Of a DNA stretch of 64,000 nt, positions 17,027-63,460 are shown piece after piece. Origin of the DNA: Eledone cirrhosa (lineage: Eukaryota); contig OZ024741.1 in assembly GCA_964016885.1 (NCBI GenBank), positions 14,508,001 to 14,572,000 of the forward strand. Direction: 5' to 3'. The notes below the pieces were generated by a model. It searched no databases and had not been told where the DNA came from. It saw nothing but the letters and a program-made list of their open reading frames with translations. The translations under genes and the position numbers were made by a program. The number at the start of each line of letters is the position of its first letter. Within the stretch, counting starts at the first letter, position 1.

Positions 17027-18382
17027 GGATAACAATATATCGTTAAAGGTAATCCGATTAGAGGTTGTGAAAGTTTCTCATCCTGGATAGTTTAAGCGTA
17101 CGGCGTTGTGTGCTTCAACAAGAGGTTTACGTGGATGACGAGTTTTTGACTTCACTTGTATTCCTATGTAAGTATATCTTGGAGTAATATAATTGAAAAA
17201 GTGAAGAATAACATCGTCAACAGTACAAACAAGGAAATTTATTTACAGTCTAACAATTGTTTCTACGATAAAGTTGTCTAAAAATTGCTAAACACTGAAG
17301 GCACTGCCACTCAATTTAAAACACATGTTATTTTCCATCATTTCGTCAGAGACTGAGAGAAAATGAAAAAATATATGCGTAACGGTAAATTTATAAATTC
17401 AAATTACCACATCAATAATAATATTAATAATAAAGATGTAGAGAGAAACAAAGGAAGGGGGACAGATGGAAAGGAGGGGGTGGAGGGAGAAAGACGAAAG
17501 AGAAAAAGAAAATACAAATATATGCATAACCAGCAAAATTACGAATTCAAACTATCACATCAAAATAATATTAATAATAAAGATACAGATAGAAAGAAAA
17601 GAGGGGGGATAGACATCATGTGAAAGATAGAGAGTTAAGACGTGCCACCGATGAGTAGTTTGTTGATAAATACAGGCAGAAATAGGATGGAGAGAAGAAG
17701 GAAGATGAACAGACAGACGAAAATACGTTAATACAAGAATAAAAGCAAGTAAAAATAGAGATTTAAGCATAGAAACAAATAAATAAATAAATAAATAAAT
17801 AAAAATATAAATAAATAAATAAATTGATAGATGAGTAAATAAATAAGTTTACAGTCTTCTTCCTTCTCTACTGTTTTTTCTTTTCTCTTTTTCCTTCTTC
17901 ATCTTTCTCTGTCTCTTTCTCTTTTTCTTCTTCATCCTTCTTTTTCTACTTTACCTTTACTACATCTATTCTTTTCTTTCTATCTGTATCTTTATTATTA
18001 ATATTATTTTGATGTGATAGTTTGAATTCGTAATTTTTGCCGGTTATGCATATATTTGTATTTTTTTTTCTCTTTCGCCCCCCCCCCTCCCCCCCCCCTC
18101 CACCAGTCACCCTTCCTTTGTTTCTCTCTATATCTTTATTATTAATATTATTATTATTGATGTGGTAATTTGAATTTATAAATTTACCGTTACGCATATA
18201 TTTTTTTTATTTTCTCTCAGTCTCTGACGAAATGATAGAAATAGCATGTATTTTAAATTGAGTGGCACTGCCTTCAGTGTTTAGCAATTTTTAGACAACT
18301 CTATCGTAGAAACAATTGTTAGACTGTAAATAAATTTCCTTGTTTGTACTGTTGACCCATGTTATTCTTCACTTTTTCAATT
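17027..18382. mobile_element. Foldback non-autonomous PLE-like element with an HHR in each arm (17246-17355 -, 18218-18326 +)
   Basis: Inverted arms ~17190-17620 / ~17955-18382; cagtct CTGACGA ...78 nt... GAAA CAATTG TT agactg; (TA)n flanks. Confidence 0.8.
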
Positions 18383-18403
18383 TATATATATATATATATA
18401 TAT

Positions 18404-20038
18404 AATTAATACAATAACAGAGATAGTTTAAAGCTAATCTCTGACTGGTAACCATCTCACTCAACAAACATTAGGTTATATTTTAATATAAACCCAATTT
18501 AAGTGTTTGGGGTGCTAACAATATGTATTATGTGGAAAAGCCAGTTGTATTATTTTATGAGATATAATTAAAGTTAAATATATCTCTCTTTGCAAACAAT
18601 TGTTTCATTATAAGTTTTCTACAAATTCGGAGAATATTTCCAGTTTATGTAGAAGCCTAATATACATTCATGTAAGAATATATTTAGGTGGGCGCTTATA
18701 AATCATCAGTGGAAGCCCATTAAACTTTGATATAAGAAAAACAAATTTCTTACGGCAGTTAAAAATCGTGTCTGTTAAGTTGCTCCCTCCCGCATCGAAT
18801 GACCGGCAAATTTGAAATTCCAGCAGTTTTTGACTGAGGAAGTATTATAGCGTCACTAAGCGGGAAGGAGAGATAACTACGATCCACGATAGAGGAAAAA
18901 AATAATATACACGCAGGTTAATCAGTTTTTTTCGAAAACATTATCAATCCAACGTGTTAAGAACTCAATTGAAATAAAAAAAATAAATATATGCGTGTAT
19001 AAATTACACACGCATATAGATATTTTCTTAGGCTAAAATCAGAGGTTGTACCTGAATAAGAAACCGCATCTCGTAACCGTAGTAAATAACGGAAAGTTAT
19101 GCTTTAAAGGGCAAATGGGAATGTAAATCTCCGGCCGAATTAAGAGTAAAATATAAAACACACGCGGGTTAATTAGTTATTTCAAAACTAATATCAATTC
19201 CTCGTGTAAAGAACTCAATTAATTTAAAAAAATAAATGTATGCATGTAATTATATACATAGGCATATATATATTTTCTTAGGCTAAAAAACAGAGAAGTT
19301 ACAACCAATAAAAACCACAATATCGCACAACAGTAATAAATACGGAAAGTCAAATTTATAAGGTACCTGGAAATAAACACCTCTGGCCAATCAAGAGTAA
19401 AAATATTAATACAATAACAGAGATAGTTTAAAGCTAATCTCTGACTGGTAACCATCTCACTCAACAAACATTAGGTTATATTTTAATATAAACCCAATTT
19501 AAGTGTTTGGTGTGCTAACAATATGTATTATGTGGAAAAGCCAGTTGTATTATTTTATGAGATATAATTAAAGTTAAATATATCACTCTTTGCAAACAAT
19601 TGTTTCATTATAAGTTTTCTACAAATTCGGAGAATATTTCCAGTTATGTAGAAGCCTAATATACATTCATGTAAGAAATATATTTAGGTGGGCGCTTATA
19701 AATCATCAGTGGAAGCCCATTAAACTTTGATATAAGAAAAACAAATTTCTTACGGCAGTTAAAAATCGTGTCTGTTAAGTTGCTCCCTCCCCGCATCGAA
19801 TGACCGGCAAATTTGAAATTCCAGCAGTTTTTGAGGAAGTAATATAGCGTCACTAAGCGGGAAGGGGAGATAACTACGATCCACGATAGGAAGAGAAAAA
19901 AAATAATATACACGCGGGTTAATCAGTTTTTTCGAAAACATTGTCAATCCAACGTGTTAAGAACTCAATTGAAATAAAAAAAATAAATATATGCGTGTAT
20001 AAATTACACACCGCATATAGATATTTTCTTAGGCTAAA
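18404..20038 (-). mobile_element. 1000-bp partial tandem (1.6 units) with one HHR per unit (18590-18714, 19590-19714)
   Basis: Period 1000; minus strand CTGATGA t TTATAAG...CTTATAA t GAAA CAATTG TT; (TA)n flanks. Confidence 0.8.
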
Positions 20039-20120
20039 TATATATATATATATATATATATATATATATATATATATATATATATAATATATATATATAT
20101 ATATATATATATAAATATAT

Positions 20121-20580
20121 AGTTAAAAGAATGGAGGTGTAACACACAAGTTATTATATATTGGTAAACGGAATAGAAAATGCTGACAAATTGTTCACAG
20201 TTGAAAAATGGTTTAATTAGGAATAAAAGAGTATTAGTGATTGTATTGGTTAGTATTCAGTTGTGGTTTTAAGTTTTTAAGTTTTTACCGGTTGCGCATT
20301 TCTAAATGCTTTTCAAAAATAATTTTGAGATAGAGTGTCGCGTGCTGTTTGCTCTGATCTCAGCAAACAGCACGGACACTGATCAGAGCAAACAGCACGG
20401 ACACTCTATCTCAAAATTATTTTTGAAAAGCATTTAGAAATGCGCAACCGGTAAAAACTTAAAAACTTAAAACCACAACTGAATACTAACCCATACAATC
20501 ACTAATACTCTTTTATTCCTAATTAAACCATTTTTCAACCTGTGAACAATTTGTCAACATTTTCTATTCCGTTTACCAAT
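20121..20580. mobile_element. Foldback element with U3-A8 HHR-like motif (20282-20320 -, 20419-20457 +); duplicate at ~22399-22855
   Basis: ~200-bp inverted arms, ~35-nt tail on the left, (TA)n flanks; TTGAAAA gcattt-ag-aaatgc GCAA CCGG TA. Confidence 0.75.
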
Positions 20581-20990
20581 ATATATATATATATATATAA
20601 AAATATATATATATAAAAATATATAAAAATATATATATATATATAGAGAAGAGAGAGAGAAAGAGAGAGAGAGAGAGAGAGAGAGAGAGAGAGAGAGAGA
20701 GAGAGAGAGAGAGAGAAGAGAGAGAGAGAGAGAGAGAGAGAGAGAGAGAAAGAGAGAGTAATCATGTTTTACTGAAAACATAATTTTAATTCTTCATATG
20801 TTTCAATGTAGATGGGCGGGCATACCACGTTTCATACAAGGTACTTGTCACCTCACTCTACATATCTACATATCTATCTATATCTATCTATATAGAAAAT
20901 ATAGAAATGGTTTCTGCAAGACTAGAACTATTTCATTCGTATGAAAACATCAGGAATATCTTGCTGATTTCATATGATTGAAACAGTTTC

Positions 20991-61637: not shown

Positions 61638-62327
61638 TATATATATATATATATATATATATATATATATATATATATATATATATATATATATAAAATA
61701 TATAAAAAATAAAAAATAGAATTATAAAAATTACAACACAACAGGCAAAACATAATAGTACCACTGATGAATTCACATGTGTGTGATGAAAGAGCTTTGA
61801 TAGACTATATATATATATAATTATATCTATATTTTTAGCTGTTGTCAATCAATGGTACACATTGATTGCCAGCTAAATTACCTATAGAGATATAAAATAT
61901 ACAGAAGCGAAAACCAACTCAAACCAAACGGTAAGTGTGTTTTATTATATATTTCTGGCAATACTATAACAATATGACCCTCCCCAACTATAACAATATG
62001 GTCGGATAATTGGCGACGAAACCGAGGCATACAAATCTGAGGGCTGTCGTATTTTCCGTAGCAAACATTTGCACCGAAGATATGTGTCGTCAGTTCCAAA
62101 AAGTGTGGTTGTTCCTACACAAGCCGTCACCACTTAAAACAAAACTTTGTGTGGGTAGTTCAACATCAGTTCACTCCCTGAACTTTTGTTGGACACTCAC
62201 ACGTCGCATACCGACGGAGAGTTATCATATATATAGTAATAATAATAAATTTGAAGACTAAAATCCAAATAGGGCTCTATAAGGATAAATATATATCAGA
62301 TATATAAGAACAATAGAGCAAATATTT

Positions 62328-62466
62328 ATTAAAATAACAGATTAAAGTTTAAGCAAAGAATCGCTGCTTTAACCCTTAACGGGATCTTCTGAAAGAGTTT
62401 CAGAAGATCCCGTTAAGGGTGAAAGCAGCGATTCTTTGCTTAAACTTTAATCTGTTATTTTAATAA
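62328..62466. mobile_element. Mini foldback made of two HHR-like (CAGAAGA) motifs
   Basis: agttt CAGAAGA t ccc-gttaa-ggg t GAAA gcag..ttgc TT aaact at 62396-62446; same motif at 35265-35315 and 45112-45162 (-). Confidence 0.7.
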
Positions 62467-62620
62467 ATAAATATATATATATATATATATATATATATTA
62501 TTGAAGGCGGTCACCCGGACTGGCAACAGCTAATTTTTTGGCCGCCTTCTCGTCTTGGGCATGTCTCTACTTTTCAGTCCCTTGGATTGTGTCTATTATA
62601 TTCCTTTGTTAAATTACGGA

Positions 62621-62678
62621 ATACCTGATGATGTCACCGGATTCATACTAAACCCGGTCATTGAAATGTTCATAGTAT
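62621..62678 (+). ncRNA. Type I HHR in a ~375-bp element between (TA)n runs
   Basis: atac CTGATGA tgtcaccgg...ccggtcatt GAAA TGTTCA TA gtat. Confidence 0.7.
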
Positions 62679-62950
62679 AATAAACCTTTAAGGAATTACA
62701 CCAGTCCAGCCTCCTGTTATTTTATAATAATTAACTCCGTACTCGCACCGCCAACAACACAAACGAAGACGGGTAAGTTGCATTACGTCGAGTGCTCTCC
62801 ATAATATTACATCAAGGTTGACTATACGGAATGACCAGTTCTATCCAGTGGTGAAGCAACAAACCTAAATGACGGTATATATATATATATATATATATAT
62901 ATATATATATATATATATATATATATATATATATATATATATATATATAT

Positions 62951-63460
62951 ATTAATAAAAGATCGGAGGCCGTATTTAGTTAGTTCTGGTTTATTTAAAA
63001 CTCCGTTATACATATTTCACTGAGGACTATCAGTTTAGATAGCCTGAGCTCTTCAGACGGCAAAACCTAAAATAAGCATTGGCAGTTCCTAATAAACGTT
63101 TAAATTTGGCAAAATAGGTCCGCCTATCGAAGAAACAACACCACACCAACGGCCCCCTGTATCATGAAAAGAAAATCTTTTTCGGTGAGATTATTAGATT
63201 TTTCCAAATTTAAGTGTTTCTTAGGAACTTTTAATGTTTATTTTAGGGTTTGCCGTCTGAATAGCTAAGGCTATCTAAACTGATAGCCCTCAGTGATATT
63301 GTGTAAAATGGAGTGTTAAATAAACCTGAAACAACTGAATGTGGCCTCCGATCTATTATTAATATATAACGCTCCGTCTTGTACCATTTATACAGGTCGT
63401 TGATCACTTCTTTTTATCTGCTTCCGCACAACCCTGTTCTGTTAACCCAATATATATACA
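62951..63460. mobile_element. Older foldback element with HHR (63003-63060 - intact core; right arm decayed) and right-hand tail
   Basis: ccgt CTGAAGA gctcaggctatc..gatagtcctcagt GAAA TATGTA TA acgg. Confidence 0.72.

Follow-up and report, generated by a model that had tools for sequence, protein, structure and literature searches.

Conserved bulged hairpins stand beside the fixed ends of head-to-head Penelope-like insertions and may set two internal starts of reverse transcription

How the inverted repeats and one-sided tail of Penelope-like elements (PLEs) arise is flagged as an open question (PMC8557442, PMC11167929). Hydra-clade PLEs (Craig et al. 2021, PMC8557442) are described with a C-terminal GIY-YIG-type endonuclease (EN), the motifs DKT, RW[K/T], CxCX5C, CxxC and CxH, a hammerhead and a (TA)n target, and an octopus family is listed among them. 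In vitro work on the Poseidon element PAc (Frangieh et al. 2024, PMC11167929) describes nicking of both target strands and two internal start sites of the reverse transcriptase (RT) that bound the tail; RNA 3′ of the starts is required, the hammerhead cut lies upstream and is dispensable, and a dimer is predicted. Penelope inverted pseudo-long terminal repeats (pLTRs; Gladyshev and Arkhipova 2013, PMC3846280) stand head-to-head, with a tail on one pLTR and central palindromes; they are explained by self-priming on an antisense template, and no end-defining hairpin was found in the accessible part of that paper. Here we analyse 64,000 nt of Eledone cirrhosa (assembly GCA_964016885.1, contig OZ024741.1, positions 14,508,001 to 14,572,000 of the forward strand; hereafter the window), AT-rich animal DNA that is dense in (TA)n runs and carries head-to-head foldbacks. 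An initial annotation had pointed to the tails of these foldbacks, and both tail and inverted structure are, as it allowed for the tail, known PLE features. We propose that head-to-head PLE insertions, of the Hydra clade where the protein is readable, and their presumed non-autonomous derivatives probably have two fixed ends, each 2–8 nt before one of two conserved bulged hairpins; these are likely binding sites of the RT-endonuclease at which two internal RT starts are fixed.

The interval 36492–43611 appears to be a young head-to-head pair of a Hydra-clade PLE, an assignment based on motifs, with likeness to published proteins judged by eye. Its full-length arm (36492..40157, minus strand, one unit plus 13 nt) has its 3′ end outward and bears the tail, and its inverted 5′-truncated arm (40156..43611, plus strand) ends at the site that we call site 1; over 3456 nt, 6 substitutions and 2 gaps separate the two. 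An 821-codon open frame (37663..40128, minus strand) would encode an RT with YRDD, an Asn-rich stretch, a CxCX5C linker and, C-terminally, a GIY-YIG-type endonuclease, where YRDD and the EN-like block YFG..F..R..H were read by motif; Pfam gave no match for this protein. RWT stands in the protein and RWK in the homolog consensus, DKT replaces DKG, the linker reads CNC-x5-C, CNIC precedes EK, CLH follows N, and there is no CCHH. The canonical hammerhead and (TA)n insertion required of the Hydra clade are both present; the type I hammerhead motif lies at 36624..36678 (minus strand, predicted cut after 36624), with a mirror copy at 43511–43565 (plus strand). The one named homolog of the window's retroelement protein comes from Argonauta. 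With a long 3′ untranslated region (UTR) and the Asn-rich insert, the unit reaches ~3653 nt; this 3.65-kb copy with its 86-nt tail differs from the <3 kb typical of Hydra elements, a length that is a tendency of the clade and not a defining rule, and from the 30–40 nt of PLE tails (Craig et al. 2021, PMC8557442). A Neptune or Naiad identity was rejected, as neither a CX2-5CxxC linker with CCHH nor, for Naiad, an N-terminal EN was found. The Asn-rich stretch, at about residues 590–680 between RT and endonuclease, resembles the N-rich inserts of Adineta Penelopes.

We mapped four public runs, the raw-read run being restriction-site associated DNA sequencing (RAD-seq), on 36482–40170. Among the loose ends listed in the first 150 nt, the best supported were at 36490 (1219 raw reads) and 36578 (295, with an (AT)n consensus), and single contigs from two other organisms end at 36492 and 36578. 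The two ends of the 36491 element are fixed family-wide, as the initial annotation had anticipated in proposing a test for two fixed endpoints, and they delimit an 86-nt tail (36492..36577, minus strand) that runs from site 1, the short end, to site 2, the long end. Over the mapped interval, read depth drops ~1000-fold from 3′ to 5′. Such ends would not be expected of post-insertion slippage deletion between an internal TA word and the flanking (TA)n, or of fold-back assembly chimeras: these ends recur in other samples and organisms and in non-TA flanks, arms differ by independent changes, and none of the 12 distinct foldbacks is symmetric. TA microhomology fits slippage, and the window does hold one near-identical duplication across an N gap; with the explanation already contradicted for the 36491 family, we consider it highly improbable.

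The long end does not correspond to the RNA 3′ end, as had been supposed. Its last 13 nt recur at 40145–40157 and continue there into the 5′ UTR, and the predicted hammerhead cut lies upstream of both ends, ~45 nt from the short one and ~130 nt from the long one, from which we infer that the long end is internal. Since the left arm, at 3666 nt (36492..40157), is longer than one unit, its template would have been an uncut multimer or a circle; circles have been proposed as template before (PMC4209133).

The foldback of a sister subfamily (24004..27578), which has the same two ends, bears on the number of priming events. Its tail-less arm reaches ~1.2 kb further 5′ than the tail arm (element position 1176 versus 2410), a geometry that would require two separate primings and agrees with the earlier suggestion of two separately primed strands. 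It is hard to reconcile with a single priming at the long end, after which the cDNA would snap back, copy itself and join its end to the far (TA)n end by microhomology. Small hairpin-like centres at 44582 and 30674 suit such a course, as do private variants shared by both arms against the family majority and the presence of the centre on the tail arm in 36491, 43641, 55471 and the outside copy L065. However, snap-back gives no reason for a copied DNA end to stop beside a hairpin that is left uncopied, and leaves solo and tandem copies ending at site 1 unexplained. We therefore favour two primings from the 24003 geometry, and regard snap-back as quite unlikely. In L1 twin priming, both target strands likewise prime, one of them at an internal site, giving an inversion; the two L1 cDNAs cover separate parts of one RNA from variable sites, whereas the window cDNAs would overlap almost fully, with both starts fixed.

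Each of the two ends is accompanied by a hairpin. Hairpin 1 (36546..36573, minus strand), a variant with an A-U outer pair and a 2-nt bulge, lies 4 nt 3′ of the short end, and hairpin 2 (40117..40137, minus strand), in the 5′ UTR, follows the long-end site that recurs at 40145–40157 by 6 nt on its 3′ side. In relatives of ~40% identity, two copies of a GCTC..GAGC-ACT motif follow the hammerhead on its 3′ side. Across 79 such loci the motif has 127 sense matches versus 17 antisense and 6.6 in shuffles; it is present in 63 loci, and at least two copies occur in 45. The next three positions, which with a 2-nt 3′ bulge form the upper stem, are paired at 0.87, compared with 0.39 when cross-shuffled between loci (0/2000, n=43), with several pair types per position and only background pairing at other bulge lengths. 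The upper stem thus appears to covary, by a count that treats the loci as independent. This fixed-geometry test replaced a loop-shuffle folding test, which ignores the bulge and found no signal (mean z +0.29). When the window was scanned with relaxed structural criteria, noise was too high for use as evidence (30 matches versus 6–13 in shuffles). Of 94 distinct cases, 47 have TATA or ATAT within 12 nt upstream of the hairpin; letter shuffles gave a mean of 23 (maximum 36).

In the consensuses of the Craig et al. supplement (PMC8557442), the motif is clear by eye in four of six Hydra elements, one with a compensatory GCCC/GGGC stem, and the Hydra-1_Ajap consensus ends at a TA word and begins with hairpin 1. 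The words ‘hairpin’ and ‘stem-loop’ occur nowhere in the accessible text of this supplement, and the accessible text of the paper was found to mention neither the hairpin pair nor a connection between it and the ends. The literature searched yielded no description of a hairpin pair or of twin priming in PLEs, although older Penelope papers and Repbase notes may mention them. Two further supplement consensuses, Chlamys-9_cRei and Chlamys-1_cAtm (PMC8557442), have GCTC..GAGCACT-like words near their 5′ ends that may be GC-rich chance. Separately, a direct-repeat insertion in (TA)n at 16190–16889 (minus strand) contains hairpin-like motifs, including the best match of the covariance model described below (E 0.018); on the 3′ side it ends in a TA word, with a GCTC 3 nt further on.

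Relatives allowed us to compare termini with hairpins. Among hammerhead copies, we examined the 36 that carry at most one hairpin; a usable reference existed for 18. All 10 clear termini with a same-family reference lie 2–12 nt before hairpin 1 (L006, L008, L027, L033, L062 and L078) or hairpin 2 (L007, L028, L037 and L038). The L045/L065 foldback, counted as one junction, brings the referenced termini to eleven: its short arm stops 5 nt short of hairpin 1, which the long arm runs past. Distances from exact anchors failed for 3 of 20 termini (35249, L037 and L062), which carry upstream substitutions, and gapped alignment placed L037 at 2 nt and L062 at 12 nt before the hairpin. L078 and L045/L065 are joined to non-TA DNA with no microhomology. 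Within the window, the foldbacks 24003, 28183, 36491, 55471 and those of the 62323 family have a hairpin 2–7 nt after the short-end site. The pattern has 11 matches in the whole window, and at least two beside the eight ends outside the 36491 family would be expected by chance with a probability of 1e-5.

All ten foldbacks of the initial annotation have one arm longer than the other, as it had claimed; by self-comparison and arm alignment, the tails measure 33–164 nt (17027, 164; 20121, 33; 24003, 88; 28183, 67; 29689, 123; 30531, 105; 36491, 86; 43641, 57; 55471, 81; 62951, 83 nt). Two further asymmetric foldbacks, the 62323 family and 31807/31971, lie beyond these ten, and the window self-comparison revealed no symmetric foldback among 12 distinct ones. 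Its second claim, that the short arm ends at a TA motif, held for the seven short ends that share at least 3 nt with alternating TA (20121, 7; 24003, 3; 29689, 3; 30531, 4; 36491, 3; 55471, 3; 62951, 7 nt), where junctions placed at random in the same arms would give 1.2 (P 2.5e-5); for microhomology length summed over the 10 short ends, P is 0.005. It failed for 17027 (0 nt exact, ~5 nt with one extra T), 28183 (1 nt) and 43641 (2 nt).

These figures bear on the mechanism first put forward, in which annealing alone places one (TA)n strand on the RNA 3′ end, with read-through into UA repeats, and the other on any internal UA-rich word. TA microhomology above chance speaks for it, as do copies such as 36492 without hairpin 2 at the 3′ end, where read-through into (UA)n would be expected, and it may apply to 20121, with 7 nt of TA and no hairpin. 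The long end, however, is internal to the unit and precedes hairpin 2, ends remain fixed in non-TA flanks, and the arms of 43641 and 55471 contain longer internal TA runs at which no end lies. Because ends follow a hairpin 2–12 nt downstream even where TA pairing is 0–2 nt or the flank is non-TA, annealing alone does not appear to pick the site, and we rate this mechanism as improbable. The shared TA rule holds in part, secondary to the hairpins.

A hairpin beside the end could also act on element DNA, with an endonuclease cutting a cDNA or double-stranded DNA intermediate at internal TA words that mimic the target beside each hairpin, so that the ends would be cleavage sites and not RT starts. 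This is the main rival to the proposal of two RT starts, and explains the fixed ends and the TA words equally well. According to Craig et al. (2021, PMC8557442), the tail is due to EN-mediated resolution, and earlier work cited by Frangieh et al. (PMC11167929) says that the tail is needed for EN recognition. On the other side, the motif is strand-asymmetric, G-U-type pairs being weakly commoner on the sense strand (6 versus 2 antisense), and in Poseidon the in vitro RT starts coincide with the tail ends (PMC11167929). On balance we consider DNA cleavage unlikely.

In the proposed mechanism, a protein, possibly a dimer, would bind both hairpins on an RNA that is either circular or a multimer left uncut, as suggested by the position of hairpin 2 beyond the long end and of the hammerhead cut upstream of both ends. 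The endonuclease would nick both (TA)n strands, and each 3′-OH would prime a single cDNA, at site 1 in one case and at site 2 in the other. Pairing of 1–7 nt to a UA word would be an optional, dispensable aid; here the self-complementarity of (TA)n stressed by the initial annotation would come in. The RT of PLEs is not known to have RNase H, so that a single RNA could be used twice. Joining of the cDNA 3′ ends via 2–3 nt of microhomology would then yield a foldback in which only one arm has the segment between site 1 and site 2. In Poseidon PAc, which belongs to another clade, the starts lie in an AC-rich stem-loop inside the open reading frame (ORF) and are not homologous to the cut DNA (PMC11167929), whereas the putative starts of the window element are UA words 5′ of a repeated conserved UTR hairpin.

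Several observations weigh against this proposal. The fixed ends come from the loose ends listed, beyond which there are 755 others, RAD reads give a few loci excess weight, and tail-to-body depths of 0.6, 1.2 and 1.0, from noisy contig depths, compare with a predicted 0.5. The argument against snap-back comes from one locus, 24003, where a later deletion is possible. Of the 36 copies, 18 lacked a reference, 3 extended to the edge of a contig, 2 were not at a terminus and 3, with distant references, were ambiguous. Because several of the loci are related families, hairpin counts overstate independence. A covariance model trained on 36 hairpins from outside loci scores the window hairpins weakly (E 0.12, 0.24 and 1.8) and misses 36573, 55547 and 28337 on the correct strand, and the A-U variant pattern was drawn up after seeing 36573. 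A hairpin lies beside six of the ten short ends first annotated, four clear and two degenerate (30531 and 62951); as 17027, 20121, 29689 and 43641 have none, the hairpin rule is not common to all ten.

The ten foldbacks comprise several families, with 24003 and 36491 as sister subfamilies that are 84–87% alike. Hammerhead cores point outward on both arms in 24003, 36491, 43641 and 55471 and on one arm in 62951, in line with the annotation that arms with hammerheads have their 3′ ends outward. A core scan gave 16 real matches versus 0–3 in shuffles; at gathering score Rfam reported no hammerhead in the window, its sole other match being HH9 in the 60154 array (E 4.6e-6). A constant spacing from hammerhead cut to short end was rejected as a general rule, as it is ~45–60 nt in three families and ~260 nt in 43641.

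Hairpin 1 of the 24003 foldback lies at 24060–24087 (minus strand). The foldback at 55471..60112 contains PLE ORF remnants (58192–58896, minus strand), hammerheads with an 8-nt core and a hairpin at 55521..55547 (minus strand), 4 nt after the short-end site. These hammerheads, at 55608–55688 and 59976–60056, have a long stem II, and 8-nt cores are listed for published Hydra elements. Foldbacks that bear the hairpin and have no readable protein are presumed to be non-autonomous Hydra derivatives. The small foldback at 28184..28396 pairs with TA by 1 nt at its short end, 7 nt before a hairpin with a 1-nt bulge (28337–28359, plus strand), and the 62323 family, absent from the initial annotation, has a foldback at 62230..62469 with a hairpin at 62271–62319 (minus strand) and solo copies at 45095 and 35249 that end at the same short site. 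The hairpin is clear in these two and degenerate in the old foldback at 62952..63451 (75% arms; 2 nt after the short-end site) and in 30531..30925, where an uncertain partial hairpin 4 nt after the short-end site has kept its lower stem and lost its 3′ word. Of the four, 62951 alone has a clear hammerhead.

The foldback at 43641..44994 is of retrozyme type, with a 476-nt unit, a hammerhead, a 57-nt tail and no GCTC-type hairpin found. A retrozyme array at 60154–61638 (3.2 × 467 nt, one hammerhead per unit, between (TA)n runs) is related to it by eye, and its 5′ junction lies at a site matching the 43641 short end. Both consist of tandem non-coding units with a type I hammerhead in each, as do non-LTR (non-long terminal repeat) retrozymes, which are thought to be PLE-mobilised (PMC7229834; bioRxiv 10.64898/2026.07.22.740005). 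In contrast to the Hydra-type copies, 43641 and 60154 lack the GCTC hairpin, and no end rule for retrozymes was found in the accessible text of either paper.

In three foldbacks, 17027..18387 (tail 164 nt), 20122..20589 (tail 33 nt, 7-nt TA pairing) and 29689..30008 (old, tail 123 nt), we found no hairpin, ORF or clear hammerhead tying them to a PLE; only their anatomy and TA target are PLE-like, and they are therefore left unassigned. With no independent second copy and no hairpin, nothing in these three proves that the tail is element and not flank. A single motif was used to look for a Naiad origin of 20121 and was not found. This foldback has a near-identical copy at 22399–22865, and the region 18405–23250 repeats ~2.1 kb, including the foldback, at 95% across a 200-N gap, likely an assembly duplication; an ACCC/GGGT hairpin variant lies in the repeat unit at 18492. 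The asymmetric foldback at 31807–32041, whose short arm (~35 nt) ends in non-TA DNA, has a related solo copy at 23524–23735, and by eye the foldback has a short motif in common with the 20121 family.

Elsewhere in the window, long interspersed element (LINE)-type RT frames occur at 13360–15708 and 63363–63980, both on the plus strand (RVT_1; the first also a weak zf-RVT). By eye, 53840–55182, 28801–29032, 30048–30267 and 31410–31426 are DNA-transposon-like pieces with short terminal inverted repeats in (TA)n. A 185-nt dispersed repeat pair (48469–48653 and 57763–57944, 90%), one copy of which lies inside the 55471 foldback, resembles a short interspersed element (SINE) by eye. Homogeneous minisatellite arrays with units of 52, 48, 123 and 71 nt occupy 1–5503 and 49690–51552.

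What is new and testable is the pair of conserved hairpins by which both ends of Hydra-clade elements are marked. As a short, conserved RNA element from which the two ends can be predicted in distant animals, it indicates exact mutations for the existing in vitro assay. The pair offers a tag for non-autonomous Hydra derivatives resembling miniature inverted-repeat transposable elements (MITEs) in AT-rich invertebrate genomes. Whether it is a clade-wide RNA cis-element, its two hairpins docking a dimeric telomerase-related RT of which each subunit primes one nicked (TA)n strand via a UA word, we regard as close to an even question, leaning slightly towards no. If so, programmed twin priming would yield the Penelope tail and the head-to-head repeats, and any RNA bearing the hairpin pair could be inserted into (TA)n. 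The finding also bears on how telomerase's sister enzyme aligns a repeat primer on an internal template.

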